Of a stretch of 64,000 nt of DNA, positions 1 through 59,469 are shown piece by piece; the first letter of the stretch is position 1, and every line of letters begins with the position of its first letter. The stretch lies in the sequence record PZ534512.1; one strand, given 5' to 3'. The notes below the pieces were generated by a model, which was not told the origin of the DNA, did no database searches, and was given only the letters and a program-made list of their open reading frames with translations. Origin of the DNA: a phage. The position numbers and the translations under genes were made by a program.

Positions 1-370
1 TCGAACACTGCATCTTTTTGATACCAGTGTGGTTCAATTCTTTTATTTCCTGAATAGATTTCTAATTTAGAAAGCCATTCATCAAAATCTTTTCTTGATA
101 ATTCTTCTTTTTCGTTAATCTGTGGGTCAATCCAGGCTTTATAGCCAAAGTTATCACAGAACTTTTTAATTTGCCCGACCAAGCCGAATGGAAGAAGGCG
201 ATTATAATCTAAAAGACGGATTCGTCCATCCCAGTTGCCATATCTGAAGCGAGGATTAAACCTATATCCATCGGCCTCAAACGAAAAGAAATCTCTTAAT
301 TCGTGGAACGTGCTCTCTTCACAATCGATGCGTACATGACTGAAGTCGTGAAAATGTACTTTAATATCCA
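1..370 (-). CDS. uvsW: UvsW helicase, N-terminal fragment (runs off window edge)
   Basis: Minus-strand translation from ATG at 370 reads MDIKVHFHDFSHVRIDCEESTFHELRDFFSFEADGYRFNPRF..., matching recalled T4 UvsW N-terminus; truncated by window start. Confidence 0.85.
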
Positions 371-373
371 TAA

Positions 374-991
374 TTATGCCTTACTAAATTTGCCTTTAGA
401 ATCTCTTTTCATGAGACGACCTTTAATAAATCCGTCGGGAATAATACCGTCTGGTTGTATTAATTTATTTATTGCACCGTTATTGACCCAAAAAGTTCCT
501 GTGGTAGTCGGTTTGACTTTACATCCTTTTCTGGACTTTCTATTAAGATGAACCATTCCTTTTACAAATCCTTCTGGAACAAGTTCTCCAGGTTTAATAA
601 AAATATTTTTAGTTCCATTAGTGTAACAAGTTGTACCTAATACCGTGCCCGGTGAGTTTTTAAATCTCTTAGCGGAAGATTCTTTCATCTTTGCTATAAC
701 CTCTGTAGTCATAACAATTCCACCAATTCCACCAGGTTTCATATTATAATAATTTTTGCTTTTTATTATTTCAGGAGTTATAATTTCTTCTTCATACATG
801 TACGCTTCTTCGGAAGTTTTAAACTCTTTTAGTATTGTTCTAGAGAAATTGTTTTCACCATATTTCTTTATAGCCTGCTGAATTGCCTTACCGGAACCAA
901 GGTAACCATCATTCAAGTCATCAGTAGAGTGTTTTCCTATATACTTTTTACCGTTTATTAGATTTGTTGTTTCATATACAAAGTGGTACAT
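374..991 (-). CDS. segE: GIY-YIG homing endonuclease, SegE-like (205 aa)
   Basis: N-terminal GIY-YIG-type motifs (YHFVYETTNLINGKKYIGKH...YLGSG); 205 aa; sits between uvsW and inh as segE does in T4. Confidence 0.8.
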   Translation of the reverse strand: MYHFVYETTNLINGKKYIGKHSTDDLNDGYLGSGKAIQQAIKKYGENNFSRTILKEFKTSEEAYMYEEEIITPEIIKSKNYYNMKPGGIGGIVMTTEVIAKMKESSAKRFKNSPGTVLGTTCYTNGTKNIFIKPGELVPEGFVKGMVHLNRKSRKGCKVKPTTTGTFWVNNGAINKLIQPDGIIPDGFIKGRLMKRDSKGKFSKA

Positions 992-1040
992 ACTATTTTC
1001 CGAGTAATAAATATATCTATATTTATACTGAGGAAATATT

Positions 1041-1721
1041 ATGATAGATAAAGATTATATTGCAGAGCTGAAGGCTCTTGATGATAATAAAGAAGCTAAA
1101 GCTAAATTAGCTGAATATGCTGAACAGTTTGGTATAAAAGTCAAAAAGAATAAATCTTTTGATAATATCGTTAATGATATTGAAGAAGCCCTCCAGAAGC
1201 TCGCTAGTGAACCTATGCCAGAGACTGATGGGTTATCTATTAAAGACTTAATTGATGCTGCTGATGCTGCAGACGGATTAAAATATGACGATGAAGAAGT
1301 CAATCCAGAGGCAGCACTTCTGATTGATTCTCCGGTTAAATCTGACATTAAAATTGAAGTAGTAGAAACGGATAAAATTCCTGAAAATACCGATGTTTTG
1401 ATTGAAGATACTCCTTTTGTTGAAGAAAAATTCGAGCAGGCTGTAGCTGAGATTATTGAATCTGAAAAGCTGTCTGTATTTACTCTTCCGGAAAACTTTA
1501 GTCCGAATCTTCAGCTGATTGGAAAAAATCCAGGATTCTGCACCGTTCCTTGGTGGATTTACCAGTGGATTGCTGAAACTCCGGATTGGAAATCTCACCC
1601 AACTAGTTTTGAACACGCGTCGGCGCACCAAACTTTATTTAGCTTAATTTATTACATTAATCGCGACGGATCAGTTCTAATTCGTGAAACACGTAATTCT
1701 TCTTTCGTAACATTAAAATAA
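1041..1721 (+). CDS. inh: Inh, inhibitor of prohead protease gp21 (226 aa)
   Basis: Size and position next to hoc match T4 inh; assigned by synteny. Confidence 0.65.
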   Translation: MIDKDYIAELKALDDNKEAKAKLAEYAEQFGIKVKKNKSFDNIVNDIEEALQKLASEPMPETDGLSIKDLIDAADAADGLKYDDEEVNPEAALLIDSPVKSDIKIEVVETDKIPENTDVLIEDTPFVEEKFEQAVAEIIESEKLSVFTLPENFSPNLQLIGKNPGFCTVPWWIYQWIAETPDWKSHPTSFEHASAHQTLFSLIYYINRDGSVLIRETRNSSFVTLK

Positions 1722-1730
1722 GGATAACTT

Positions 1731-3149
1731 ATGGCTTTTACAGTTGATATAACTCCTAAAACACCTACTGGAGTTATAGATGAGACTAAGCAGTTTACTG
1801 CTACGCCCAGTGGTCAAACTGGAGATGGACCTATTACCTATGCTTGGACTGTTGATGATGCACCGCAGGAAGAAACGTCTGCAACTTTTAGTTATGTACT
1901 AAAAGGTCCTGCTGGACAAAAGACTATTAAGGTAGTTGCAACAAATCCAGTTCCTGATTCTGAAGCTGAAACAGCTGAAATTAGTACAACTATCACAGTT
2001 CAAAATAAGACACAAACAACTACTTTAGCTGTAACTCCTGGTAGCCCTGATGCTGGAGTGATTGGAACTCCAATTGAATTTACCGCTGCCTTAGCTTCAC
2101 AGCCATCAGGTGCAAACGCTACGTATCAATGGCACGTTGACGGTTCTCCTGTAGACGAAGCAACTGACGCTACATTCAATTACACTCCTGACACAAGCGG
2201 AGTTAAAAAAATCAAGTGTGTAGCTCAAGTAACTGCGGCAGATTATGATGCACTAAGCGTTACTTCTAATGAAGTATCATTGACTGTTAATAAAAAGACG
2301 CAGACGACTACCTTGGCAGTAACTCCTGATAGTCCTCCAGCTGGAGTGATTGGAACAGCCGTTCAATTTACTGCTGCCTTAGCTTCTCAACCTGATGGAG
2401 CATCTGCTACGTATCAGTGGTATGTAGATGATTCACAAGTTGGTGGAGAAACTAACTCTACATTTAACTATACTCCAACTACAAGTGGAGTAAAAAGAAT
2501 TAAATGCGTAGCTCAAGTAACTGCTGAAAATTACAATGAAAAGGAAGTTACTTCTAATGAAGTATCATTAACGGTTAATAAGAAGACAATGAATCCACAG
2601 GTTACATTGACTCCTCCTTCTATTAACGTTCAGCAAGATGCTTCGGCTACATTTACTGCTAATGTCACTGATGCTCCAGAAGAAGCGCAAATTGAATATT
2701 CATGGAAGAAAGATTCTTCTCCTGTAGAAGGATCAACTAATGTATATACAGTTGATACCTCATCTATTGGAAGTCAAACTATTGAAGTTACTGCAACTGT
2801 TACTGCTGCTGATTATGATAGCAAAACTATCACAGCAGAAGGTCAAGTTCAGGTAACTGATAAAGTTGCTCCAGAACCAGAAGGTGAATTGCCTTATGTT
2901 CATCCTCTTCCACATCGTACTTCGGCTTATATCTGGTGCGGTTGGTGGGTTATGGATGAAATCCAAAAAATGACCGAAGAAGGTAAAGATTGGAAAACTG
3001 AAGATCCAGATAGTAAATACTACCTGCATCGTTACACCCTTCAGAAGATGATGAAAGACTATCCAGAAGTTGATGTTCAAGAATCACGTAATGGATACAT
3101 CATTCATAAAACTGCTTTAGAAACTGGTATCATCTATACCTATCCATAA
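1731..3149 (+). CDS. hoc: Hoc, highly immunogenic outer capsid protein, with extra Ig-like domain (472 aa)
   Basis: Tandem ~96-aa Ig-like repeats (KTQTTTLAVTP...YQW.VD...VTSNEVSLTVNKKT) plus C-terminal capsid-binding region; position between inh and rnlB. Confidence 0.85.
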   Translation: MAFTVDITPKTPTGVIDETKQFTATPSGQTGDGPITYAWTVDDAPQEETSATFSYVLKGPAGQKTIKVVATNPVPDSEAETAEISTTITVQNKTQTTTLAVTPGSPDAGVIGTPIEFTAALASQPSGANATYQWHVDGSPVDEATDATFNYTPDTSGVKKIKCVAQVTAADYDALSVTSNEVSLTVNKKTQTTTLAVTPDSPPAGVIGTAVQFTAALASQPDGASATYQWYVDDSQVGGETNSTFNYTPTTSGVKRIKCVAQVTAENYNEKEVTSNEVSLTVNKKTMNPQVTLTPPSINVQQDASATFTANVTDAPEEAQIEYSWKKDSSPVEGSTNVYTVDTSSIGSQTIEVTATVTAADYDSKTITAEGQVQVTDKVAPEPEGELPYVHPLPHRTSAYIWCGWWVMDEIQKMTEEGKDWKTEDPDSKYYLHRYTLQKMMKDYPEVDVQESRNGYIIHKTALETGIIYTYP

Positions 3150-3153
3150 TCAT

Positions 3154-3178
3154 AAGGGGCTTCGGCCCCTTTCTTCAT
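3154..3178 (+). terminator. intrinsic terminator after hoc
   Basis: AGGGGC-TTCG-GCCCCT followed by a T-rich tract. Confidence 0.7.
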
Positions 3179-3238
3179 TTTGAAAGCACACAAAACACAC
3201 TCAGAAAATGATGTATATAATGGCACCAACTCGATAAC

Positions 3239-3454
3239 ATGAGATTGATTATGAGAACTGAGGTTGTGGTGTTTACTCTTCATGAGTCTGGAAAGTCATT
3301 CATTGAAATTGCTCGTGAATTGAACTTACAGGCAAAGGAAGTGGCTGTTTTATGGGCTCGAGCTATGACTGCTAAGAATAAATTTGAAACTCGAGAAAAA
3401 GTTGTCTATAGAAAAAGGCATATTAATAAAAAGGTGAAAAATGGAACAGTATGA
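3239..3454 (+). CDS. hypothetical small protein (T4 24.3 position)
   Basis: ORF between hoc and rnlB; synteny only. Confidence 0.45.
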   Translation: MRLIMRTEVVVFTLHESGKSFIEIARELNLQAKEVAVLWARAMTAKNKFETREKVVYRKRHINKKVKNGTV

Positions 3455-3719
3455 TCTTTATGAAAATGAATCTTTTGCTAATCAATTACGTGAAAAAGCA
3501 CTTAAAAGTAAACAGTTTAAGCTAGAGTGTTTTATTAAAGATTTTTCGGAACTTGCTAATAAAGCAGCTGAACAAGGTAAAACATATTTTAGTTATTATT
3601 GTACTGCTCGCGATAAATTGATTACTGAGGAAATTGGTGATTGGCTGAGAAAAGAAGGATTTAATTTTAAAGTCAATAGTGATCAGCGTGATGGTGATTG
3701 GTTAGAAATTACATTTTGA
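3441..3719 (+). CDS. hypothetical small protein (T4 24.2 position)
   Basis: ORF between hoc and rnlB; synteny only. Confidence 0.45.
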   Translation: MEQYDLYENESFANQLREKALKSKQFKLECFIKDFSELANKAAEQGKTYFSYYCTARDKLITEEIGDWLRKEGFNFKVNSDQRDGDWLEITF

Positions 3720-3728
3720 GGATTAATT

Positions 3729-4733
3729 ATGTTTAAAAAGTATAGCAGTCTTGAAAATCATTACAACTCTAAATTTATTGAAAAACTTTATAGCTTAGGA
3801 TTGACTGGCGGCGAATGGGTAGCTCGTGAAAAGATTCACGGCACAAATTTCTCATTGATTATTGAGCGTGATAAAGTAACTTGCGCTAAACGTACTGGAC
3901 CGATTCTTCCTGCTGAAGATTTCTTCGGTTATGAAATTATTTTAAAGAATTACGAAGATTCTATTAAAGCTGTCCAAGAAATTATGGAAACTTCAGCTGT
4001 TGTGACTTATCAAGTTTTTGGCGAATTCGCTGGACCTGGCATTCAGAAGAATGTTGATTATGGCGATAAAGATTTTTATGTATTTGACATTATTGTCACT
4101 ACCGAAAGTGGTGATGTAACTTATGTTGATGATTACATGATGGAATCGTTTTGTAATTCATTTGGGTTTAAAATCGCTCCACTTTTGGGTCGTGGTAAAT
4201 TTGAAGATCTTATTAAACTTCCAAATGATTTGGATTCTGTTGTTCCGTCTTATAATTTTACAGTAGATAATGCAGGTTTAATTGACGCTAACAAATGCGT
4301 TTGGAAAGCTGAAGCCAAAGGCGAAGTATTTACCGCTGAAGGATATGTATTGAAACCTTGTTATCCTTCTTGGCTGCCTAATCGCAATCGTGTAGCCATC
4401 AAATGCAAGAATTCTAAATTTAGTGAAAAGAAAAAGTCTGATAAGCCTATTAAAGCTAAAGTTGAACTGTCAGAAGCTGATAACAAATTGGTGGGGATTT
4501 TAGCTTGTTACGTTACACTAAACCGAGTAAATAACGTTATTTCTAAAATTGGTGAAATTGGTCCAAAGGATTTTGGAAAGGTGATGGGGCTAACTGTCCA
4601 AGATATTTTGGAAGAAACTTCTCGTGAAGGTATTACTCTAACTCAAGCAGATAATCCTTCTTTGATTAAGAAGGAATTAGTTAAAATGGTACAAGATGTA
4701 CTTCGTCCGGCTTGGATTGAATTGGTAAGTTAA
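3729..4733 (+). CDS. rnlB: RNA ligase 2 (Rnl2), 334 aa
   Basis: Translation [43 protein letters not shown]... matches recalled T4 Rnl2, including the KxHGxN ligase motif; 334 aa. Confidence 0.92.
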
Positions 4734-4735
4734 AT

Positions 4736-4765
4736 AAAAAGGGACCTTTCGGTCCCTTTGTTTTA
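4736..4765. terminator. bidirectional terminator between rnlB (+) and gene 24 (-)
   Basis: AAAAAGGGACC-TTTC-GGTCCCTTTGTTTT: hairpin with A-run before and T-run after. Confidence 0.7.
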
Positions 4766-6046
4766 TTCATCAATGATAATTTTTGGTAGCTTAACACCTA
4801 ATAAAACAGACAAATCTGAACGACCCGCCATTTTATCCATGTCTCCACCATCAATTACTCTTGCTTCTTTTTCATCTTTTGCTACGGTGTAAGGATTTGC
4901 TGATAAAGCATATCTAACTAATAAACCGATAGATGGCTGCAAACTTTCTGGGTCAACAACAACTTTAAATGCACCTACATGTTCAGGGTCATCTAAGTCG
5001 AGACCTTCTGTATATGGAGCATAGAAAATTGATCCAACAATTTCTTTTTCACCGATATTTTCTACTACACCAACGATTACATAATCTAATGGGCTGTTAG
5101 TATCGCAATAAAGCGGTAAACCATTAGCTAAGAACCCGTAGGCATTTTGTGAAAGATATTTATCATCTTCTGGTTTATGTTTTAACCAACCTGATGCAGC
5201 AAGAATCGCGGCGGCACGAGCTGAAGCAACACAGAACGTTGCTGTATAAGTTGATTCTTTTTGGATATGTGAAACCATTTCACATACCATTCGATATAAT
5301 GAACGACCCGCTTCAGGTGCAGATGCATAACTCAAATCAATGAATCCAGTATCAGTAATTCCTGTAACTTTATAACGTTTTGATACTGTAATCAAAGACT
5401 GCAGAATATCTTTATTGATTTCATCTGCCATTTCGGTTGCAAGCAAATCTTCCAAGAAATTAGGAGCATCGAATCCATTTGCTTCTAAATCTTGTGCTAA
5501 TTCAACTGTAATGCCAGTTTTAAGTTTACGAGATTTAACTGCGGTTTGCCATTTATTAATCTGGAATCTAGCATCCGCAATTTCACTATCAGAGCTTTCA
5601 AATTTGCTTGTTACTGCAGCATCAGAAAATAGACGAACCTTTAAAAGAACAATTGCAATCTGAAGAGCCAATTCTAAATCGCTTTCTTCAATATCAGCAA
5701 ATGGTGTATCTTCTAATACTTTATAAACGATATTATTATATTTGAATAAATCGCCTTTATTGAGAGTTAATTTAGACTCTTCTGTTAATTCTGTGATTTG
5801 TTCTCGGTCTACATATCCAGCTTCGCCAGCATAAGTAGCACCAGTTTTAAATGTAAATTCGTTGTCTGGGTTAAGGTATTTGATACCATAAAAAGCAGCA
5901 ACAGGTTGATTAGTTCTTTGCGTTGCTACAATGTCAGAATATATTAATTTAGTGGTAGCGCGAGTCAAAGCAACGAGATTTGGGCGACCGATTGAGTTGC
6001 TATTCGTTGTGGTTGATTCGCGCAGAAGTTCGTTGATTTTAGCCAT
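4763..6046 (-). CDS. 24: gp24 head vertex protein (427 aa)
   Basis: 427 aa as in T4 gp24; adjacent to gene 23; HK97-like capsid fold paralog of gp23. Confidence 0.9.
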   Translation of the reverse strand: MAKINELLRESTTTNSNSIGRPNLVALTRATTKLIYSDIVATQRTNQPVAAFYGIKYLNPDNEFTFKTGATYAGEAGYVDREQITELTEESKLTLNKGDLFKYNNIVYKVLEDTPFADIEESDLELALQIAIVLLKVRLFSDAAVTSKFESSDSEIADARFQINKWQTAVKSRKLKTGITVELAQDLEANGFDAPNFLEDLLATEMADEINKDILQSLITVSKRYKVTGITDTGFIDLSYASAPEAGRSLYRMVCEMVSHIQKESTYTATFCVASARAAAILAASGWLKHKPEDDKYLSQNAYGFLANGLPLYCDTNSPLDYVIVGVVENIGEKEIVGSIFYAPYTEGLDLDDPEHVGAFKVVVDPESLQPSIGLLVRYALSANPYTVAKDEKEARVIDGGDMDKMAGRSDLSVLLGVKLPKIIIDE

Positions 6047-6073
6047 TGCGCTTTCCTTTTGGTTTATATGATT

Positions 6074-6081
6074 TATTTATA
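6074..6081 (-). promoter_or_regulatory. late promoter (TATAAATA) for gene 24
   Basis: Plus-strand TATTTATA about 28 nt upstream of the gene 24 ATG. Confidence 0.65.
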
Positions 6082-6097
6082 CCATAAAAACAACTAA

Positions 6098-6115
6098 AGG
6101 GACCCGAAGGTCCCT
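6098..6115 (-). terminator. hairpin after gene 23
   Basis: AGGGACC-CGAA-GGTCCCT between the gene 23 stop and the gene 24 late promoter. Confidence 0.5.
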
Positions 6116-6129
6116 TAAATCGTCAAAGA

Positions 6130-7695
6130 TTAGATACCTTTAACATATACACGGCGGAAGTAAGCGTTTTTACCAAGGCTATTCAGAATAGAAGGCATAC
6201 CGCTCTGGATGCGAGAAGCCGGAGCCTGAGCAGCGGATTCTGCAAATGGGTTGATACCGATACCGTAACGAGTTTTGAATCCCATTACCGGTTGGAAGTT
6301 CTTCGGATCGGAACCACGCAGCGGAGTCAGAGCTACATATGGAGCATAGTAAATACCAGCATCCATTTCGTTAGGACCTTTATAACCTACAGTGAAATAA
6401 TCCTGTTTAGCATACTGGTCGATATATACGCGGTATTTACCACCCAGAACACCAGCAAATACTGACTTGGTAGTATCAGTGTTAAAGCCGGTAGCCAGAC
6501 CTTGTGCAGCATAAGAAATGCCGGTATCAACTGAAGCCAGAACGTTAACTACGTTACGGGAAGCGATAATGAAGTTACCTTCACCACGACCGGTCTGACG
6601 AGCAATTTCAACTGCTTCTTTGTCAATCTGGAACAACAGAGCTTTAAAGGATTCACCCGCCCAGCGAGCACCACGAATATCAATCGGATCCTGGAAGTCA
6701 AATACACCAGCTTTAGAACCCGGAGTCAGGGTCATACCAGATTTACCAACCTGAGCTGAGTAGTTAATCCAATCAACAACTTCACGGTTGATTTCCAGCA
6801 TGATTTCGGTAGCCAGAATACCAGACAGTTCAGCATCAGCATCCATACCGTGAACAGCGCGGAGGTCTTGTGCTAATTCGATAGAGTAAGCAGCTTTCAG
6901 CTGACGAGATTTAGCTTCGATAACTTGTTTATCGATACGGAAGCCCATTTCATTCCATGGGTTATCGGTAGAACCGTTGAAACCTTCCTGAAGTTCAGCG
7001 ATAGAAGTAGCCATACCTTCGGCGATTTCTACCAGTACACCAGCTTCCATTTGTTTCTTAATTTCAGCATCTAATTTAGCTGCATCGTTAGCACTAGCAT
7101 CGATTGTTACTACAGCGGAAGCTTGCAGATACACAGTACCAGTTTCCTGGAAGAAGTGAGTATAGATGTCACCTACAACAGTTTCTGTGCTAGCAGCCAA
7201 AGCTGGGAATTTCTTAGCAGCACCCTGACCAGAGAACATTGCATCTGGACCATACATTGGGTGGAATGCTTCTTTAGCACCGGCAGCGATTGGGTCTTTA
7301 CCATATACTGCGCGCAGTGCGAATACCTGGCCAGTCGGGCTGTTCATCGGCTGAACACCGCAAATATCGAAAGCAATCAGGTTAGGAATAGCACGACGTA
7401 CCATACCCATAACAGCTGGGCCAATCTGAGTTACTGCGCCAGAAGTCTGACCAGCAGCGATGTTAGTAGCGTTGTAACCGTGGTCACCACCGATTTCAGC
7501 TTCTGTTAAGAAAGAACCGAACGCCTGAGCGATTTTTTCGTCTTTGTATTCTGGAGCTGTCTGGAAATCTTTTTCCTGGTTTTCAAAGATTTTAGCGATA
7601 ATCGCTTGTTTGCTATTAGCAATTTCCGGTAAACCTTCACCTTCCAGTAATGGCTTCCATTTGTTCAAAAGTTCAGCTTTAGTTTTGATAGTCAT
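6130..7695 (-). CDS. 23: gp23 major capsid protein (521 aa)
   Basis: 521 aa as in T4 gp23; N-terminus MTIKTKAELLNKWKPLLEGEGLPEIANSKQAIIAKIFENQEKDFQTAPEYKDEKIAQAFGSFLTEAEIGGDHGY; TATAAATA late promoter upstream. Confidence 0.95.
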   Translation of the reverse strand: MTIKTKAELLNKWKPLLEGEGLPEIANSKQAIIAKIFENQEKDFQTAPEYKDEKIAQAFGSFLTEAEIGGDHGYNATNIAAGQTSGAVTQIGPAVMGMVRRAIPNLIAFDICGVQPMNSPTGQVFALRAVYGKDPIAAGAKEAFHPMYGPDAMFSGQGAAKKFPALAASTETVVGDIYTHFFQETGTVYLQASAVVTIDASANDAAKLDAEIKKQMEAGVLVEIAEGMATSIAELQEGFNGSTDNPWNEMGFRIDKQVIEAKSRQLKAAYSIELAQDLRAVHGMDADAELSGILATEIMLEINREVVDWINYSAQVGKSGMTLTPGSKAGVFDFQDPIDIRGARWAGESFKALLFQIDKEAVEIARQTGRGEGNFIIASRNVVNVLASVDTGISYAAQGLATGFNTDTTKSVFAGVLGGKYRVYIDQYAKQDYFTVGYKGPNEMDAGIYYAPYVALTPLRGSDPKNFQPVMGFKTRYGIGINPFAESAAQAPASRIQSGMPSILNSLGKNAYFRRVYVKGI

Positions 7696-7713
7696 TTGTG
7701 TTAACCTTTAAAA

Positions 7714-8523
7714 TTAGAAACGAGATGCGACTTTCGCATATACACTTACAATATCTTCTGCACCCTGTGCAGCTTTATCTTCTACAGCTTCAGTGACGAA
7801 ATTCAGTCCGGCTGCTTCAGTATCAGGAGTATTTATACTCTCAGTAATAGTGCTTTCATCTTTATTAGATTTCTTCACCATTTCTACGATTGCACTCAAT
7901 TTACTTGAGAATGCATCTGAATAATCCATACCTTCGACCAGAGCAGAGACTTTTTCTTTTTGAGACTCAGTCAGATCTTTAGTACTTTCGCTCAATGCCA
8001 CTTCACGCTGCACATAATTGATATATGCGTCACGCTTATTGAGTTCTTCGAACAGACGAGCTGATTCTTCTTTATGTTCTTGCAGCTCTTCTTCCATTTC
8101 AGCTACAATATCAACTGATTCTTCTGGAACAACAACGTTGTGTTCAACAAAGAGCTCTTTTAATCCACCAAGCATGGATTCAAACAGTTCGGCTTTGATG
8201 CCTTTATCAACTGCTAATTTATTTTCAGCGAGCCATTCTTTTGCAAGATGGTCAATGAATTTAGAAGCTTGCTCAGCGATTTTCTTCTCAGCTTTTTCTT
8301 CGGCTTCTTCTTTATTTTTTTCTACTTCTTCTTCTGCTTTTTCAGCAATTTTAGCGATATGAGATTCAGCTAATTTAACGGCGTGCTGCTTGACGGTAGC
8401 TTCGAATACAGTGCCGAAAGTTTCTTTTGCTTCCGGAGAAATATTAACTGATTCGAAAATACTATCAAGAGCAACGGAAGCATCAATTTTTTGCGCTTCA
8501 GCAATCAGTTGTTCTTTAAGCAT
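7714..8523 (-). CDS. 22: gp22 prohead core scaffold protein (269 aa)
   Basis: 269 aa, highly charged helical protein between genes 21 and 23. Confidence 0.9.
   Translation of the reverse strand: MLKEQLIAEAQKIDASVALDSIFESVNISPEAKETFGTVFEATVKQHAVKLAESHIAKIAEKAEEEVEKNKEEAEEKAEKKIAEQASKFIDHLAKEWLAENKLAVDKGIKAELFESMLGGLKELFVEHNVVVPEESVDIVAEMEEELQEHKEESARLFEELNKRDAYINYVQREVALSESTKDLTESQKEKVSALVEGMDYSDAFSSKLSAIVEMVKKSNKDESTITESINTPDTEAAGLNFVTEAVEDKAAQGAEDIVSVYAKVASRF
7830..7837 (-). promoter_or_regulatory. late promoter P23 (TATAAATACTCCTGATA) for gene 23
   Basis: Minus-strand TATAAATACTCC inside the 3' end of gene 22, about 135 nt upstream of the gene 23 ATG. Confidence 0.7.
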
Positions 8524-8550
8524 TTTGTAGTCCTATTGTTTAGATAATAA

Positions 8551-8558
8551 TATTTATA
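8551..8558 (-). promoter_or_regulatory. late promoter (TATAAATA) for gene 22
   Basis: Plus-strand TATTTATA about 28 nt upstream of the gene 22 ATG, overlapping the gene 21 stop. Confidence 0.65.
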
Positions 8559-9192
8559 ACGCTTTTTTCATGGCCTCTGCGAGAGCCATATAGGCGTCAT
8601 CGGCACTTGTATCGGCTTCCGCCGTCTGTGATTCGGTAATTTCCTTAGGAGTTACCCATGCATCTGGAGCACTTGGACCCCATACTGCATCAACACCTAC
8701 AGTTAATTTGAATCCTTCGTTTACGATACGATAACCTTTATTTGTGTCAGTCAATGAACCTAATCCACGAGAAGAAACTCCTGGAATCCATCCGGCACGA
8801 ATATTAGCTGCTAATTTATCTCCAGGACCATGGTCACCTTCAATAACACGAGCTCGTCCGTATACGTCATTTCCTTTCCACCACATATCTTCTATAATGA
8901 TAGCGGCTTGCATCGGGTCAACATTAGCGCGTGGAGGATGATTTAATTCTCCGAGAGCTTGTTTAGTTAAAACTTGCTCATTGATATAGTCTTTTACCGC
9001 TTTTTCTAATATGCGTTTTGGATAAAGACGTTTATTTCTATTGACGACTTCCGCTTGCATGAATATTCCTTCGATGTATAAACCAGGTTTTAAACCTAGG
9101 TCTTTTCCATCATGAGATTCAAGCATTGGCACGCCATCAATAATTTCGCCAGGTTGACCCCAAGTTTCAATTAGTAATTGGGGTTCATTCAT
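8554..9192 (-). CDS. 21: gp21 prohead core protease (212 aa)
   Basis: 212 aa; position between 68 and 22. Confidence 0.9.
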   Translation of the reverse strand: MNEPQLLIETWGQPGEIIDGVPMLESHDGKDLGLKPGLYIEGIFMQAEVVNRNKRLYPKRILEKAVKDYINEQVLTKQALGELNHPPRANVDPMQAAIIIEDMWWKGNDVYGRARVIEGDHGPGDKLAANIRAGWIPGVSSRGLGSLTDTNKGYRIVNEGFKLTVGVDAVWGPSAPDAWVTPKEITESQTAEADTSADDAYMALAEAMKKAL

Positions 9193-9617
9193 TAGCTTAA
9201 TCCTAATGCTTTACGGCGTTTAAGAGCTTTTTTACGCTTACGCTGAGCACGAGATTGACCTGCTGGGTTGGCAATCTTCGTTTTGGTAGCTTTGCGAGCA
9301 ATTTGTCTACGTTTTGCTTTAGACAACCCGGTGGTTTGAAATGCATTACGTTCACGCGTTTTGCGGTCTTTGGTACGTGTAATTTCACCACGAGCAGAAA
9401 CATGTTTAACGATGAATTCATTTAGCGGCATATCTTCATTAATAGAAGCTAATGCAATCGCTAAATCAGTTTCATCATCAAGCATATTCTCGACAATTGT
9501 ATTTATATCGTCTTTATTTAAAGCAGAAGACAATTCGTCAAAGCGACCCTGTGCTTCAGGAATAAGTGCTTCGACATTCTCGAGAACTAATTCATGAGTT
9601 TCAGGGATCAGAAGCAT
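9192..9617 (-). CDS. 68: gp68 prohead core protein (141 aa)
   Basis: Size and position between 67 and 21. Confidence 0.8.
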
Positions 9618-9870
9618 TATTCATCATCCTCGTCTTCGTCATCTTCATCAGAGTCTTTGTCTTTTTTGTCGTCTTTATCATCGCTATCTTCGTCATCATC
9701 TTCATCTTCATCCTCGTCTTCAGGTTCTTCACCTTCAATTAAGAAATTACGAGCGATAGCAATTTTTTCTTCTTTAATTAAATCAATCGTTCTTGCAGCC
9801 ATGGCTTCAGCAAATAATTTACGAGCGGCTACGAGGTCGTTTGATTTAATAGCTTCAATTAAACCTTCCA

Positions 9871-9871
<1 letters not shown>
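9617..9871 (-). CDS. 67: gp67 prohead core protein with acidic C-terminal tract (84 aa)
   Basis: Small protein between portal gene 20 and gene 68; long D/E tract. Confidence 0.8.
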
Positions 9872-11496
<1,625 letters not shown>

Positions 11497-11528
11497 TTAA
11501 GCAGGATGGGGATTTCTCCCCATTCATT

Positions 11529-12020
11529 TTATTCCCAATAATCGAGAGCGAGAGTTACTTCAAAGGTTTGGATTTCATTGTTTGAATCCCAATCTAATTG
11601 AAGTTCACCCACGTTAGTAGGCCACAGACCTTTAATTTCAATTTCTTTTGTTACTGTTTTAGCGTCACGAGCATATTGACGAACGATAGCGCTCTTTTTA
11701 TACTCTGCAGGTTTTCCACCAGTAATTTCGTTTCCTTGACCAGCAGCAATGCTTTGCCAATCAACGAACTTCTGGCGAGCATCATGTGCCTCATCGTTCA
11801 TTACTGTAACAGTCCAGTCATCGAATGTACGATCGCCTGCCACGTTAATTTTACGGTTCATAAATCCGACTGGAATTTTTTCTACAATACCAGCTGGTAA
11901 AGCAGTGGCTTTACATTGGAACGTAAAATTTTGTCCAAGATAAGAAATTTCTACTTGGAATAAGTTAGGTCGAGCAAAATCACCAGATTCAAACGCTCGT
12001 GTTACATCATCTACAAACAT
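11529..12020 (-). CDS. 19: gp19 tail tube protein (163 aa)
   Basis: 163 aa as in T4 gp19; two TATAAATA boxes upstream. Confidence 0.9.
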   Translation of the reverse strand: MFVDDVTRAFESGDFARPNLFQVEISYLGQNFTFQCKATALPAGIVEKIPVGFMNRKINVAGDRTFDDWTVTVMNDEAHDARQKFVDWQSIAAGQGNEITGGKPAEYKKSAIVRQYARDAKTVTKEIEIKGLWPTNVGELQLDWDSNNEIQTFEVTLALDYWE

Positions 12021-12034
12021 ATTAGCCTCTGTAG

Positions 12035-12042
12035 TATTTATA
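12035..12042 (-). promoter_or_regulatory. late promoter (TATAAATA) for gene 19, proximal
   Basis: Plus-strand TATTTATA 15 nt upstream of the gene 19 ATG. Confidence 0.6.
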
Positions 12043-12093
12043 TCCCTATGTTTAACCTAGGGCATATAGAATTAAAGAATTAAGGATATAGTG

Positions 12094-12101
12094 TATTTAT
12101 A
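12094..12101 (-). promoter_or_regulatory. second TATAAATA box upstream of gene 19
   Basis: Plus-strand TATTTATA adjacent to the hairpin that follows the HNH ORF. Confidence 0.5.
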
Positions 12102-12102
12102 T

Positions 12103-12120
12103 GGCCTGCCGAAACAGGCC
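12103..12120 (-). terminator. hairpin after the HNH ORF
   Basis: GGCCTG-CCGAAA-CAGGCC immediately 3' of the HNH ORF on the minus strand. Confidence 0.4.
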
Positions 12121-12127
12121 TTTAGAA

Positions 12128-12745
12128 TCATTCTAGTAAATCCCAAAGATCTACACTATTTCTTTTTGATTTTTCTCGGTTAGATTCCCAAGTGATTATT
12201 TCTAAATTATTAATACCGCCAATTATTTTAGCAGGAATTAAATTATCAAAACCATATTTGATAGATACCTTATGATCAAGTTGGTAAGCACCTTTTGTAC
12301 CGCACACTCCTATTTTATCAGCATTTGGCCATTTTGACCAAATTTTCTTATGCTTACGAGTTTCTTTATATACCAATGAAATATATTCACGCATTTCAGA
12401 TTTATTTGGGTTCCATCTTGGATGATTTACGCCATGCATACATTCTACTGTTTTTCCTTTATTCGCGGAACCATATGAATTATTGCGCATTTTATCTTTA
12501 TGACGGCAATCACGACAAATATCAGTATTTCTTCCAATGCGTTGGTTATATTCAATTCCACATTTATCGCAACGACATTTTACATACGCGGTACTACCTT
12601 TAATGTCTTCAACTTTAACATCAATTTCATAATACCTAAATCCATGTTTAACCGCTCCAAGAGGTGTTAATTTATAACCCTTTGATTGATAATGTTTAAA
12701 ATTTGATGGTACAATTTTCACTTTAACAAACTTAGAAATAATCAC
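12128..12745 (-). CDS. free-standing HNH homing endonuclease (about 205 aa if GTG start at 12745)
   Basis: C-terminal HNH-type motif (QLDHKVSIKYGF...NNLEIITWESN) and Cys-rich zinc-binding region (CRCDKCG...CRDCRH); the ORF-track N-terminus (to 12784) runs through the gene-18 terminator hairpin, so a GTG at 12745 preceded by GAGGAAA is the preferred start. Confidence 0.7.
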   Translation of the reverse strand: MIISKFVKVKIVPSNFKHYQSKGYKLTPLGAVKHGFRYYEIDVKVEDIKGSTAYVKCRCDKCGIEYNQRIGRNTDICRDCRHKDKMRNNSYGSANKGKTVECMHGVNHPRWNPNKSEMREYISLVYKETRKHKKIWSKWPNADKIGVCGTKGAYQLDHKVSIKYGFDNLIPAKIIGGINNLEIITWESNREKSKRNSVDLWDLLE

Positions 12746-54136: not shown

Positions 54137-54159
54137 AGTCTCCTTCGGGAGACTTTTTT
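54137..54159 (+). terminator. intrinsic terminator
   Basis: AGTCTCC-TTCG-GGAGACT followed by TTTTTT. Confidence 0.8.
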
Positions 54160-55122: not shown

Positions 55123-55668
55123 ATGATGAGCGAGGCGAAACGATTAGTATTAGAAGTTAGTTCACTTTTTGGTGAATTGGCTATAGAAAAAGTAAATAAT
55201 ATGTATCGTTTGACACAAGAAGACGATATGCTATATTTTACGCCTAGTGAAATCATTCATTTAATCCAAATTGAAAATCCTTATACTGATAAAATTGTAA
55301 GCATTAATGATGAGCATAAAATTCATTTTTATTCTTCATGCCCAGGATTTAATATTGAAAGCGAGTCAATATGCTTATCAGTTATCCATTGGGATAGTTT
55401 TATAGATAAGATTAAATATTTTTATTATTCTAATGAAAGAAAACATAGTTTAAAATGGTTTAAAAATTGCAATGCTATTATTACTAACGCTTGCAATCAG
55501 AATGATGAAACTGTTTTAAACGTATCAAAATGTTATGAAGATGGAGATGTCTTAACTATTCGTCAAATTGATGATTTTCGAGCACATATTGTCACATTTA
55601 CCAAAGACGAAGCTATTGCGCTAAAGACTTATCTTGATTCTGTCATTCCAACTATGATTTCAAAGTGA
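55123..55668 (+). CDS. hypothetical protein, paralog A of tandem pair (181 aa)
   Basis: Shares PGFNIESES / EGFNIEDEN and a C-terminal ...AIALKTYLDSVIPTM motif with the next ORF. Confidence 0.5.
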   Translation: MMSEAKRLVLEVSSLFGELAIEKVNNMYRLTQEDDMLYFTPSEIIHLIQIENPYTDKIVSINDEHKIHFYSSCPGFNIESESICLSVIHWDSFIDKIKYFYYSNERKHSLKWFKNCNAIITNACNQNDETVLNVSKCYEDGDVLTIRQIDDFRAHIVTFTKDEAIALKTYLDSVIPTMISK

Positions 55669-55674
55669 GGAAAT

Positions 55675-56196
55675 ATGTTTATTTCAAGTGAAAGTGGTTT
55701 AATTCGTGTTGAATTTAAAAATGACATCTTTCTTATTCAAGGAGATGATACTATTAAAATGAGTTATGACGAAATCAAGAAAATTTGTCACATTCTTGGA
55801 AGTCGTGGAAAAGTAAATGCTGTTATTGACATCGGTGATTTATGGGTAACTCTTTATGAAGTATCCGAAGGATTTAACATTGAAGATGAAAACAACATCT
55901 TAGCTATTGATAAAAGAAGCGATTTGTTTGATGTGTTAAAAGTTTATGAACAGTCAAACGGTGGAAGAAAAGCTGCATTGATTTATCAAAAACCACATTC
56001 ATGCGGAACTGCTTCAATTATTTCAGATATTGAAGATGAAACTGATACTTATATGTGTGTTTTAAAAGCTGGTGGTGACCGTCATCCGGATTTTATTTCT
56101 ATTCGTCAAAACAATGGAGAAATTTCATTATCAAAATCAGAAGCTGAAGCTATGATTAAGTATTTAACAACTGTTACACCTTCAATGAAAGGATAA
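55675..56196 (+). CDS. hypothetical protein, paralog B of tandem pair (173 aa)
   Basis: Paralogous to 55123-55668 (C-terminal ...AEAMIKYLTTVTPSM). Confidence 0.5.
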   Translation: MFISSESGLIRVEFKNDIFLIQGDDTIKMSYDEIKKICHILGSRGKVNAVIDIGDLWVTLYEVSEGFNIEDENNILAIDKRSDLFDVLKVYEQSNGGRKAALIYQKPHSCGTASIISDIEDETDTYMCVLKAGGDRHPDFISIRQNNGEISLSKSEAEAMIKYLTTVTPSMKG

Positions 56197-56198
56197 TT

Positions 56199-56660
56199 AT
56201 GATTATTAATGAAAACTCTTGGCACTATAAATTATTCAAACTGTTTAACGACGAATGGAAACGACCTAAGACACTGTGTGCATACTTTTGGTCTATTGTT
56301 ATCCCTACATTTTTCGTTTCTTTTTTCGGATGTACTATACTCGCAGGTCTAACTATTATCTGTGCAGAAATCATGCAGAAATGGCTTATTTTTGGTAGTT
56401 TATGGACTCTTATTCCATCAGCATTTATACTTGCCATTTTGCTTGTTTTACTTATTATTGGTTCATTTGTTATTCCTGCACAACTGCATGAAAAATATAA
56501 AGATTATAAATGGAAAAAGGATTATGCTTTACATGTAGAAAATATTGATAGGGCGTATAAAGGTTTACCTCCTATTCAACCCAAGAAATCTATTATCGTC
56601 GAATTTTTAAAAGCACGTAAAGCTAAAGTATGTCCTGTTATTGAATATAAGGCTGAATGA
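56199..56660 (+). CDS. predicted integral membrane protein (153 aa)
   Basis: Three or four hydrophobic helices; ATGA overlap with the downstream nucleotidyltransferase gene. Confidence 0.5.
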   Translation: MIINENSWHYKLFKLFNDEWKRPKTLCAYFWSIVIPTFFVSFFGCTILAGLTIICAEIMQKWLIFGSLWTLIPSAFILAILLVLLIIGSFVIPAQLHEKYKDYKWKKDYALHVENIDRAYKGLPPIQPKKSIIVEFLKARKAKVCPVIEYKAE

Positions 56661-57670
56661 TGAAAACAGTAATGAAAAGCTATTTTGGTAGTCATCTTTA
56701 TGGAACTTCTACTCCAGAATCTGATGTAGATTTTAAAGAAATCTTTGTTCCTCCTGCTCGTGATATTCTTATCGGAAATGTTAAAGAGCATATGAGTAAA
56801 AACACTAACAACACATCATCTAAAAACACTAAAGATGATATTGACCATGAACTATACAGTCTTAAGTATTTCTTTAAATTAGCAGCAGATGGTGAAACTG
56901 TAGCATTGGATATGCTCCACACTCCACCGGAACTAGTAGTTAAATCTGATTTGCCTGATGTATGGAAGTTTATTCAAGACAATCGTTCTCGTTTTTATAC
57001 GACCAACATGAAATCCTACTTAGGATATGTTCGCAAGCAAGCTTCTAAATACGGTGTTAAAGGTTCTCGTTTGGCCGCATTACGCGATGTATTGAAAGTA
57101 GTTAATCAAATCCCCGATCAGTGGGTTGATTACCAAGAAGATGGTTCTATTAAGCAGCGTCGCACTAAAGTTGAAGATATTAAGCATCGTCTTCCAGAAA
57201 ACGAATTCTGTGAATGGGTGTTCCATAATCATGAGAAAACAGGTCCACAGACGTTTTACACAGTGTTGGGTCGTAAATATCAGACAACGCTTTCTCTTAT
57301 TGAGCTTAAGCAGTCACTGAACAAATTAGATGCTGAATATGGTGAACGTGCTCGTAAGGCCGAAGCCAACGAAGGCATTGACTGGAAAGCTCTGAGCCAT
57401 GCCTGTCGTGGTGGACTTCAACTATTGGAAATTTACAAAACTGGCGACTTGGTTTATCCACTTCAAGACGCTCCATTTATTCTCGACGTGAAGTTGGGTA
57501 AACATCCATTTAAAACAGTTCAAGAGTTTTTGGAAGATGTGGTCGATCAAGTAGAAGCAGCATCTACTGAAGCTTCTAAGAACGGTATGCAGCAAAAAGT
57601 AGACATGGGTTTCTGGGATGACTTCCTTGAGAAGGTCTATCTTGAAAACCACCGAAGTTATTATAAATGA
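56657..57670 (+). CDS. predicted Pol-beta-superfamily nucleotidyltransferase (337 aa)
   Basis: N-terminal G-S-x10-D-x-D motif (YFGSHLYGTSTPESDVDF) and downstream acidic hDh (ALDMLH); long helical C-terminal domain. Confidence 0.6.
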   Translation: MMKTVMKSYFGSHLYGTSTPESDVDFKEIFVPPARDILIGNVKEHMSKNTNNTSSKNTKDDIDHELYSLKYFFKLAADGETVALDMLHTPPELVVKSDLPDVWKFIQDNRSRFYTTNMKSYLGYVRKQASKYGVKGSRLAALRDVLKVVNQIPDQWVDYQEDGSIKQRRTKVEDIKHRLPENEFCEWVFHNHEKTGPQTFYTVLGRKYQTTLSLIELKQSLNKLDAEYGERARKAEANEGIDWKALSHACRGGLQLLEIYKTGDLVYPLQDAPFILDVKLGKHPFKTVQEFLEDVVDQVEAASTEASKNGMQQKVDMGFWDDFLEKVYLENHRSYYK

Positions 57671-57672
57671 TA

Positions 57673-57696
57673 GGGAGCCTTCGGGCTCCCTTTTTT
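57673..57696 (+). terminator. intrinsic terminator
   Basis: GGGAGCC-TTCG-GGCTCCC followed by TTTTTT. Confidence 0.8.
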
Positions 57697-57720
57697 ATTT
57701 CAAAAATTTTTCACAAAACG

Positions 57721-57750
57721 GTTTACAAGCATAAAGCTTTATGGTACTAT
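57721..57750 (+). promoter_or_regulatory. T4-type early promoter (same cassette as at 42523)
   Basis: GTTTAC (57721-57726), TACTAT (57745-57750); shares AAAATTTTTCACAAAACGGTTTACA and GGTACTATACAACTATCAACT with the 42.5-kb promoter. Confidence 0.7.
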
Positions 57751-57784
57751 ACAACTATCAACTGATACAGATTTGGAGAATAAA

Positions 57785-58753
57785 ATGAAAACTGTAACTA
57801 TCAATAAGGGTATCTACTTCGGTAAAGAAATCTCTGGAACTTTTGAGCTCTTAGGCGAATGGTTCCCAGATAATGCTCCGGTAGATGCACAAGGAGATGG
57901 TAAAGTTTTTGTTGAAATTGACGGTAAGCGTCGCGGTGTTTGGGTTTACAAATCAGACATTTCATATGATGGTGTAAAAGTTGAAGAAGTTAAAGAATCA
58001 TATGAAGATATGAAAACCCGCATTAATAAAAGATTTAATGTTATGGGAATGATGACGAATGGTATTATTAACGGAAACATTCGTTCATTAATTATCTCTG
58101 GTGCGGCGGGTATTGGTAAAACGTATTCTTTAGATAAAGCTTTAAATAAAGCAAATGATATTGGATACATTGAATATAAAAGCATTAATGGTAAAATCTC
58201 TGGTATTGGTCTTTATGAACAGCTTTGGAATAATCGTGAAGAGAATTCTGTCCTTTTGATTGATGATGTGGATGTTTTCTCTGATATGGACATTCTTAAT
58301 CTTCTGAAAGCTGCTCTGGACACTGGAGAGACCCGTAAAGTCTGCTGGAGCACTGCGTCTTCTTACTTAGAAGAAAAAGGCATTGAGCGTGAGTTTGAAT
58401 TTAAAGGAACGATTGTTTTTATCACAAACGTTGACATTGACCGCGAATTAGACCGTGGTACTAAACTTGCTCCACATTTACAAGCATTAGTGTCCCGCTC
58501 AGTTTATTTGGATTTGGGTGTTCACACTAATGAAGAAATTATGGTCAGGGTTGAAGATGTTATTCTTTCAACTGACATGATGCAAAAGCGCGGTCTTTCT
58601 GATGAAGAAACTTATAAAGCATTATCATGGATGAAAGTCAATGTTAATCGTTTACGCAATGTTTCACTGCGTACTGCTCTTTATCTTGCTGACTTTATTA
58701 TGACAGACAAAAACGGTTGGGAAGAAATTGCTGAAACGGTATTATTAAAATGA
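57785..58753 (+). CDS. predicted P-loop/AAA-like ATPase (322 aa from ATG at 57785)
   Basis: Walker A GAAGIGKT and Walker B VLLIDDVD; ORF-track start 57773 is a TTG. Confidence 0.6.
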   Translation: MKTVTINKGIYFGKEISGTFELLGEWFPDNAPVDAQGDGKVFVEIDGKRRGVWVYKSDISYDGVKVEEVKESYEDMKTRINKRFNVMGMMTNGIINGNIRSLIISGAAGIGKTYSLDKALNKANDIGYIEYKSINGKISGIGLYEQLWNNREENSVLLIDDVDVFSDMDILNLLKAALDTGETRKVCWSTASSYLEEKGIEREFEFKGTIVFITNVDIDRELDRGTKLAPHLQALVSRSVYLDLGVHTNEEIMVRVEDVILSTDMMQKRGLSDEETYKALSWMKVNVNRLRNVSLRTALYLADFIMTDKNGWEEIAETVLLK

Positions 58754-59469
58754 AAAAATATTTTACTATCTATAAAACTGAAATATTAAATTTAAAGACA
58801 GGTATTAAGAAATACTATTATGGTCGACATATAACTAATAACATCAATGATTCGTATGTTGGTAGTGGAAATTATATAGAACGTGTAAAAGTGTCAAATG
58901 ACCACATATTATCAAAAACGGTTTTAGAAGTTTTTGATAATTATGATAAAATGGTACAAGCTGAAATATTATATATCATGGCAGGTAAATTGAAATATGG
59001 AAAAAACTGTGTTAACCTGTCATACGGGGGTGAAGGAGGAAAGGTTGCAGATGAAACTAGGATAAAATGCAAAAAGCATTCTATAAATTTATGGAAAAAT
59101 CCTAATCATATACAGCATATGAAGAAAAAGATGAAAGAGGTCACATCCACGCCGGAAGCTAAATTAAACACTTCAATAAAAACTTCGCAACGATATAAGG
59201 ACCCAGTTTTTGTTAGAAAAGTTAGTAATATTATTAAAAAGAAACTAAGCAATCCTGTAGTAAAAGAAAAGCATATTAATGGAATTAAAGCTGCAAAGCG
59301 TTCTCATTTAACTATATGGCAATATGAAGATGAATTATTCGAGCTTTGGAAAGAAACTAAATATGGATGGAGAAAATTTACAAAGGAAGCTATAAAACAC
59401 GGGTATCCAAATGAACCGTATCGTAGTATGGTATCAACCTTTCAGAAAAGACATTTAGAAGAATCCTAA
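58750..59469 (+). CDS. GIY-YIG-like Seg-family homing endonuclease (239 aa)
   Basis: N-terminal YYYGRH...YVGSG and LSYGGEGG motifs, parallel to segB (IYIGAH...YMGSG, LKLGGEGG); basic C-terminal DNA-binding-like region. Confidence 0.65.
   Translation: MKKYFTIYKTEILNLKTGIKKYYYGRHITNNINDSYVGSGNYIERVKVSNDHILSKTVLEVFDNYDKMVQAEILYIMAGKLKYGKNCVNLSYGGEGGKVADETRIKCKKHSINLWKNPNHIQHMKKKMKEVTSTPEAKLNTSIKTSQRYKDPVFVRKVSNIIKKKLSNPVVKEKHINGIKAAKRSHLTIWQYEDELFELWKETKYGWRKFTKEAIKHGYPNEPYRSMVSTFQKRHLEES

Follow-up and report, generated by a model that had tools for sequence, protein, structure and literature searches.

The 64,000-nucleotide (nt) stretch of phage DNA analyzed here (sequence record PZ534512.1, hereafter the window) is a segment of a Tequatrovirus (T4-like) genome with a T4-type tRNA cluster at 40.1-41.5 kb, and it carries an intact orthologue of the T4 gene nrdC.11 (Table 1). 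On the evidence of sequence and predicted structure, its product belongs, as a divergent long form, to the RlaP family within the Pol-beta nucleotidyltransferase (NTase) superfamily. The open reading frame (ORF) has exactly the coordinates and the length of 337 amino acids (aa) given by the initial annotation, which was made from the DNA letters without database searches; a second ATG at 56660 is where the annotations of T4, T2 and RB27 have the start, which would give a protein of 336 aa. The gene is 97% identical at the DNA level to RB27_098 of phage RB27, and the protein shares 98% aa identity with T4 NP_049709.1 and 99% with the T2 protein. Gene order is shared with RB27, and with T4 only on the downstream side (nrdC.10, nrdC.9 and nrdC.8), so that full-length identity and Tequatrovirus synteny together identify the gene as the T4 orthologue. 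It lies on the strand opposite the late structural genes of the window, in the orientation of the T4 prereplicative genes, amid early host-takeover genes and with T4-early-like promoter sequences matched on its flanks.

At least 80% of the gene is covered by 509 phage records, and a gene that hundreds of sequenced T-even phages carry is an ordinary find for a sequence scan. RlaP was reportedly named by Burroughs and Aravind in 2016, and nrdC.11 is said to have been put into this RNA-ligase-associated family in that year. Its orthologues had already been matched in 2006 to the nucleotidyltransferase domain COG3541 (PMC1524935), and those of T4, T2 and RB27 are annotated as "nucleotidyltransferase". 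The gene is the long-annotated T-even nrdC.11 and belongs, as already known, to a family for which biochemical data now exist. Many orthologue records in GenBank and UniRef are named "thioredoxin" and one "putative HNH homing endonuclease"; because the protein has no thioredoxin domain, these names are propagated misannotations, with the label apparently taken from the nrdC.11 gene name or from adjoining genes.

Table 1. Features in and around nrdC.11 (nucleotide positions in the window; residues numbered in the 337-aa protein).
Feature	Position	Strand	Remarks
nrdC.11 orthologue, RlaP-family (PF10127) nucleotidyltransferase	56657..57670	+	337 aa, ATG start, ORF intact
Predicted N-terminal Pol-beta NTase domain, aa 1-135	56657..57061	+	Pfam, hhalign, AlphaFold2 strands
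NTase motif YFGSHLYGTSTPESDVDF with G11-S12 and putative metal-binding pair D23/D25, aa 9-26	56681..56734	+	motif position, conserved in 55/55
D63, probable third catalytic carboxylate	56843..56845	+	invariant in 55/55, strand 62-68, aligned with canonical RlaP D95
D85 of ALDMLH, conserved acidic helix residue	56909..56911	+	helix 81-87, aligned with canonical RlaP E117
Clade-specific beta-rich segment of ~90 aa (aa 140-235)	57074..57361	+	predicted helix 136-150, five strands, long helix 214-236
K244-x3-H248-x2-R251 (DWKALSHACR) on predicted helix 243-262	57386..57409	+	invariant in 55/55
Two tandem MobD.1/y05I paralogues (PF24449 + PF24448, "putative transcription factor"), then the 153-aa membrane protein	55123-56660	+	
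153-aa predicted membrane protein (phrog_944)	56199..56660	+	TGA stop overlaps nrdC.11 ATG (ATGA)
Intrinsic-terminator-like hairpin AGGGAGCC-TTCG-GGCTCCCT and T run	57672..57701	+	two bases past nrdC.11 stop
Promoter-like site TTTACA-17-TACTAT, extended -10, T4-early-like	57722-57750	+	ahead of nrdC.10
nrdC.10, AAA/STAND-like ATPase (phrog_1250)	57773..58753	+	sub-cutoff Pfam AAA_14, AAA_22, nSTAND3
239-aa Seg-like homing endonuclease (phrog_314; segE-like in RB68)	58750-59469	+	between nrdC.10 and nrdC.9

Family membership was assessed first from profile matches. The protein scored 44.2 bits against PF10127 (RlaP; E 2.6e-11), above the gathering cutoff of 23, in a match that spans aa 7-135 and only positions 23-142 of the 249 in the profile, and it matched PHROG 388 ("nucleotidyltransferase") with an E value of 8e-137. 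An exhaustive search at E <= 1e-3 returned 3428 representative homologues, of which 828 remained at E <= 1e-30. When a profile of 55 full-length homologues (34-54% identity to the query) was compared by hhalign with 17 canonical full-length PF10127 proteins, the N-terminal domains aligned over 125 columns (query residues 5-139; probability 93.8%, E 1.7e-7). This alignment paired G11-S12 of NrdC.11 with G50-S51 of canonical RlaPs, D23 and D25 with D62 and D64, D63 with the invariant D95, and D85 with the invariant E117. In a published sequence similarity network of PF10127, T4 NrdC.11 falls in cluster 5 (PMC12776372). NCBIfam gave no match for NrdC.11, and sequence searches of the PDB with the single protein and with the 55-sequence profile found no real homologue, the crystal structure of Pseudomonas fluorescens RlaP (PfRlaP) evidently lying outside the set searched.

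The Pol-beta-superfamily reading had been proposed in the initial annotation from an NTase signature at residues 10-27; Pfam, PHROG and a confident structural model agree with it, and the motif itself is present, at residues 9-26. It reads F10-G11-S12 ... D23-V-D25, in keeping with the hG[GS] and [DE]h[DE] elements of the superfamily, and G11, S12, G16, S22, D23 and D25 are invariant in all 55 homologues. Taken alone, the loose pattern h-G-[GS]-x(9,13)-D-h-[DE] is not significant, as a six-frame translation of the window contains it five times, once across a stop codon, and to this extent the signature could be a chance motif in a non-enzyme or belong to a degenerate pseudo-enzyme. The motif is placed beyond chance, however, by the PF10127 score, the PHROG 388 match and its invariance over the 55 homologues. 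Hidden Markov model (HMM), profile-profile and fold evidence are concordant, every catalytic residue is retained at 34-54% identity, and the homologues number in the thousands. A chance motif or pseudo-enzyme is thus refuted by Pfam, conservation, the AlphaFold2 model, fold matches and hhalign, and we give this explanation practically no weight.

Two candidates were considered for the third catalytic carboxylate. The initial annotation had placed it in ALDMLH (residues 83-88), about 65 residues after the D-x-D pair; D85 in fact lies 60 residues past D25, on a predicted helix, and the column holds D in 50 homologues, E in two, N in two and A in one. D63 most probably fills this role instead, because it is invariant in 55/55 homologues, lies on a beta strand of the model and aligns with D95 of canonical RlaPs, whereas D85 is helical and replaced by N or A in 3/55. 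A carboxylate at D63 would also sit where the superfamily has it, on a strand neighboring that of the D-x-D pair, and in PfRlaP three strictly conserved aspartates form the catalytic set (PMC12776372). D85 is probably a conserved family-specific acidic residue, not a metal ligand.

AlphaFold2, run with the 55-sequence alignment, produced a model with a predicted local distance difference test score (pLDDT) of 93.9 and a predicted template modeling score (pTM) of 0.83. The NTase core is modeled as strands 3-10, 24-31, 45-49 and 62-68 with short helices in between, D23 and D25 being placed at the start of strand 24-31. The Foldseek check suggested with the initial annotation returned an NTase fold: matches in the PDB were weak (best E 2.5e-3), yet the 25 best were all Pol-beta-type NTases, among them 3c18, Hailong HalB, kanamycin NTase/ANT(4'), Tam41, AAD(9) and LinB; AadA and the MNT antitoxin ranked lower. 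Among the predicted viral structures of BFVD there were 33 matches at E <= 1e-3, and those of 230-320 aa, many of them named nucleotidyltransferase, had target-normalized template modeling (TM) scores of 0.5-0.9.

Structural resemblance of this kind raises the question of substrate. A protein or small-molecule nucleotidylyltransferase, performing AMPylation like MNT antitoxins or DrrA or metabolite adenylylation like aminoglycoside NTases, is suggested by the presence of kanamycin, lincosamide and aminoglycoside NTases, DrrA, GlnE and an MNT-HEPN complex among the structural matches. These matches were, however, no stronger than generic NTase ones (TM 0.2-0.34), two RlaPs did not accept E. coli proteins as substrates (PMC12776372), and the conserved genomic partners of the NrdC.11 clade, described below, are RNA-end-processing enzymes; we consider this function improbable. 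The initial annotation had further suggested a HEPN-like partner domain in the C-terminal part. Resemblance to HEPN is at fold level only: the Rx4-6H catalytic motif, which also bears on the MNT-like function, was looked for in NrdC.11 and not found, and Pfam and PHROG scans of the neighboring ORFs identified no separate HEPN partner gene.

A likeness to CD-NTases and OAS enzymes, also proposed in the initial annotation, gave way to assignment to the RlaP family. A signal or decoy synthase, either CD-NTase/OAS-like or a HalB-like maker of free oligonucleotides that manipulates host immune signaling, would share the G-S / D-x-D / D triad common to CD-NTases. Against it, no CD-NTase, cGAS or OAS structure was among the PDB matches listed, the PADLOC defence models (CD-NTases and CBASS included) gave no NrdC.11 match at E <= 0.01, identity to HalB is just 13-15%, and the neighborhood evidence favors RNA repair. 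Characterized RlaPs, moreover, extend RNA 3' ends, halt once 1-2 nucleotides have been added to an RNA primer and make no cyclic or 2'-5' signals (PMC12776372). Such a synthase therefore appears highly unlikely.

The C-terminal part of NrdC.11 sets it apart within the RlaP family. Where about 200 C-terminal residues had been predicted to be helical, residues 100-337 are indeed mainly helical in the model, yet five beta strands lie between 155 and 209. They belong to the beta-rich segment at aa 140-235, an interval that measures 77-108 residues in all 55 homologues and had no match to canonical RlaPs by hhalign; canonical RlaPs (~255 aa) would have ~15 residues at this position, assuming a K-x3-[H/Y]-x2-R match that is itself non-significant. 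That match is the top local alignment between the C-terminal regions (E 0.17) and pairs K244-x3-H248-x2-R251 with the invariant, identically spaced K172-x3-Y176-x2-R179 of canonical RlaPs. K244, H248 and R251 are a candidate motif for binding nucleoside triphosphate (NTP) or RNA in the C-terminal helical domain. Overall, the BFVD matches are consistent with NrdC.11 being a whole RlaP-like two-domain fold plus an insert.

What such a fold may do is indicated by a December 2025 preprint on the RlaPs of P. fluorescens and P. aeruginosa (PaRlaP). Both enzymes add 1-2 NMP (or dNMP) onto RNA 3'-OH ends, prefer Mn2+, and do not use DNA, protein or 3'-phosphorylated RNA. Of a cleaved tRNA mimic they favor the 5' half over the 3' half, and they partly rescue aminoacylation of a tRNA short of one anticodon-loop nucleotide. 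The crystal structure of PfRlaP comprises an N-terminal NTase domain and a C-terminal helical domain with the last helix packed back onto the NTase domain, and the 3'-OH product is chemically compatible with 5'-phosphate ligases such as Rnl1 (all PMC12776372). Wobble-nucleotide excision by RloC was suggested in 2008 to overcome Pnk and Rnl1 on their own (PMC2610378), and Iyer et al. predicted in 2021 that phage RlaPs put back nucleotides cut out by nucleases like RloC, prior to ligation (PMC7824862).

The genomic context of the clade was compared over 78 viral loci and 80 bacterial or archaeal genome contigs, with neighbors taken within 6 kb. The bacterial and archaeal contigs hold full-length NrdC.11-like genes (31-54% identity) whose alignment extends over the beta-rich segment. 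Downstream sequence was sufficient in 70 bacterial loci; in 22 of these the next gene on the same strand encodes a canonical RlaP of ~255 aa, at a distance of about -8 to +265 nt from the long gene. The downstream protein is a full-length PF10127 match (E down to 1e-80), and in most loci it is missed by the NrdC.11-clade HMM, the paralogues being too divergent. Because the two forms are often adjacent genes in bacteria, they are probably not redundant, and their arrangement suggests a two-enzyme module. The tandem-pair contigs include, by our contig labels, L086, L088, L100, L103, L105, L111, L113, L115, L131, L132, L137, L139, L146, L150, L151, L153, L155, L158 and L159. A fusion of the two forms, suggested by ORF lengths in L150 and L158, was rejected as the parts lie in different reading frames.

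Genes for Pnkp, Hen1, RtcB, RtcA or Ro60/TROVE were found in 17/80 bacterial loci. In a Nitrosospira contig (L115, about 2000-12700), genes for Ro60/TROVE, RtcB, RtcA, an NrdC.11-like protein, canonical RlaP and a Hen1-like protein stand in a row, with a weak Pnk-like match farther downstream; in L151, Hen1 and an opposite-strand ORF are followed by Pnkp, the NrdC.11-like gene and RlaP. In L085 (positions 62-3803), a 4-kb contig that was binned as Bathyarchaeota but may be viral, one strand carries genes for an NrdC.11-like protein, an NT5C-like nucleotidase, a T4-type Pnk (37% identity to T4 PseT) and an Rnl1-type ligase, the last preceded by a 143-aa ORF; by sequence, this amounts to the T4 repair set in compact form, in physical linkage with the NTase. 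A viral contig (L067) has an Rnl1-type ligase gene 3 kb upstream of its NrdC.11-like gene. The RNA-ligase or end-healing neighborhood is thus absent from the window and from T-even phages and present in the clade elsewhere, and the description "RNA-ligase-associated" holds for the NrdC.11 clade itself, not inside T-even genomes.

Other arrangements were also seen. A recurrent cassette downstream of the NrdC.11-like gene encodes, in three contigs (L087, L090 and L096), a UDG-superfamily-domain protein of ~516 aa and then a ResIII/SNF2-type helicase; the UDG-like gene is replaced by a 164-aa ORF in L124, where a stand-alone HAD_PNKP phosphatase precedes the NTase. RtcB follows the cassette in L096 and L124. 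The 78 viral loci keep a T4-like synteny around the NTase gene. In L044-L059 and related distant T4-like phages the NTase lies near genes of nicotinamide adenine dinucleotide (NAD) salvage (NAPRTase/NAMPT, NUDIX and a cytidylyltransferase-like NMNAT), a proximity that probably reflects shared synteny, not a functional link. A second, canonical RlaP was sought in phages and found neither in the window nor within 6 kb of the NTase gene in any of the 78 viral loci.

The analysis establishes the orthology, family and fold of NrdC.11, the conserved state of its catalytic residues and the RNA-repair neighborhoods of its clade; its activity, RNA target and role in infection are inferred. We consider it reasonably probable that NrdC.11 is an active RlaP-type extender of RNA 3'-OH ends that acts between Pnk and Rnl1 during infection. 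Support for an active enzyme comes from G11, S12, D23, D25, D63, K244, H248 and R251, all invariant across the 55 sequences. D23, D25 and D63 would bind a pair of divalent metal ions (probably Mn2+, as for the characterized RlaPs), which would activate the 3'-OH of a broken RNA for attack on the alpha-phosphate of an NTP, so that one or two untemplated nucleotides are added. The C-terminal helical domain, with K244/H248/R251, and the beta-rich insert may form the opposite wall of the substrate cleft. This step would be set between healing and sealing in classic T4 tRNA repair: once a host anticodon nuclease has cut, Pnk would clear the resulting 2',3'-cyclic or 3'-phosphate, NrdC.11 would replace a nucleotide excised by a nuclease such as RloC, and Rnl1 would then join the 3'-OH and 5'-phosphate ends. 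T4 encodes both pseT and rnlA, which is compatible with a repair role, and it tolerates deletion of nrdC.11 (PMC9825161), which fits an accessory counter-defence function.

Several observations weigh against this extender role. There is no Pnk or Rnl1 homologue in the window, pseT and rnlA lie ~78-80 kb from nrdC.11 in T4, and no RNA ligase was among the 25 commonest Pfam families of 131 neighbor ORFs from 24 divergent phage loci. The wobble base of tRNA-Lys is naturally modified. By sequence comparison, statistically supported homology to canonical RlaPs is limited to the N-terminal domain, as the C-terminal domain, compared separately by hhalign, reached only the non-significant E value given above. 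The activity of the clade is assigned by homology, its presumed chemistry being carried over from the Pseudomonas enzymes, and no nrdC.11 mutant phenotype is reported in four papers mentioning the gene. Untemplated addition, furthermore, gives the correct nucleotide in only a fraction of events (PMC12776372).

Some of these points would equally suit an RNA 3'-end nucleotidyltransferase with another purpose, such as repair or blocking of the tRNA 3' (CCA) end against host toxins or tailing of host or phage transcripts to alter their stability. In E. coli RNA, RlaPs label many species in the size range of rRNA and tRNA and discriminate little between NTPs (PMC12776372), T-even nrdC.11 is unlinked to pseT and rnlA and sits in its early host-takeover setting, and the insert of this clade could direct the enzyme to other RNAs. 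On the other side, the clade is embedded in Pnkp/Hen1, RtcB/RtcA and Pnk plus Rnl1 operons (in bacteria and in some probably viral contigs), which points to repair of internal breaks, and the tRNA half that RlaPs prefer is the 5' one over the acceptor-end-bearing 3' half (PMC12776372). We regard another purpose as rather unlikely.

The extender role can be taken further, to a possible but somewhat doubtful scheme in which long RlaPs are a distinct subfamily that performs a two-enzyme nucleotide-restoration step with canonical RlaP in bacteria, while T-even phages keep the long form only, as a third component of the T4 Pnk/Rnl1 pathway. Its basis is the ~90-aa beta-rich insert and the position just upstream of canonical RlaP in about a third of bacterial loci, within operons of the Pnkp/Hen1, RtcB/RtcA and Ro60 types; the pairing suggests that the two enzymes may differ in nucleotide or RNA-end specificity, or form a heterodimer. 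If true, a long RlaP would let a phage reverse nucleotide-excising anticodon nucleases such as RloC. The value remaining in this locus lies in the in vivo role of NrdC.11 in T4 and in the bacterial pair of long and canonical RlaPs.

The segment upstream of nrdC.11 is a variable spot, its T4 counterpart (for 55123-56660) being a single mobD.1 plus the HNH homing endonuclease gene mobD, which T4 holds where the window has the 153-aa membrane protein. Because a terminator-like hairpin and a promoter-like site lie between nrdC.11 and nrdC.10, the sequence suggests that nrdC.11 closes one transcription unit and nrdC.10 opens the next. Strong bidirectional hairpins with T runs were noted both here and at 54137-54154 after the rI.-1 homologue, and terminator-like sites are enriched in the stretch (10 found against 3.1 expected). 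nrdC.10 is 60-99% identical in many Tevenvirinae and lies downstream of the NTase gene in most close Tevenvirinae loci; it is missing within 6 kb in ~40/78 viral loci, and phmmer found no homologue of it in the 80 bacterial loci, where unrelated AAA ATPases adjoin some of the NrdC.11-like genes. With the intervening terminator and promoter-like site, this led us to reject nrdC.10 as an obligate partner. PADLOC and NCBIfam returned no match for nrdC.10, the 153-aa membrane protein or the downstream y05I/MobD.1 paralogue. The start of the Seg-like endonuclease gene overlaps the nrdC.10 stop; the endonuclease is not in T4 or RB27 and is full length in 67/502 phage records matching the stretch.

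Among known systems, T4 NrdC.11 is the closest, being the same gene at 98-99% aa identity (T4/T2) and the same length, followed by the same nrdC.10, nrdC.9 and nrdC.8. The T4 locus differs in having mobD in place of the membrane protein and second MobD.1/y05I paralogue, and the window, unlike T4, has the Seg-like endonuclease downstream of nrdC.10. Hailong HalB (PDB 9dbh, 9dbj), at the low identity noted above, makes a protein-primed poly-dA immune signal and is paired with a membrane channel, whereas NrdC.11 relatives sit in RNA-repair operons and NrdC.11 matches no PADLOC model. Kanamycin NTase/ANT(4') and the NTase-like protein 3c18 share 8-10% identity (TM 0.24-0.34) and no genomic or family link, and the substrates of this group are small-molecule antibiotics. 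NrdC.11 differs from MNT-HEPN modules in lacking both the Rx4-6H motif and a HEPN partner among the neighboring ORFs scanned, and from CD-NTase/OAS enzymes in its lack of a PADLOC match and of any such structure among the matches listed. With canonical RlaPs it shares the Pfam family, the aligned G-S, D-x-D, third Asp and following acidic helix residue, the order of an N-terminal NTase domain and a helical C-terminal region, and the tie to RNA ligase and RNA-end-healing genes. It differs from them in being ~80 aa longer, with the beta-rich insert at aa 140-235, in a C-terminal domain that lacks a significant sequence match, and in its place in network cluster 5, where canonical RlaP is in cluster 1a (PMC12776372).

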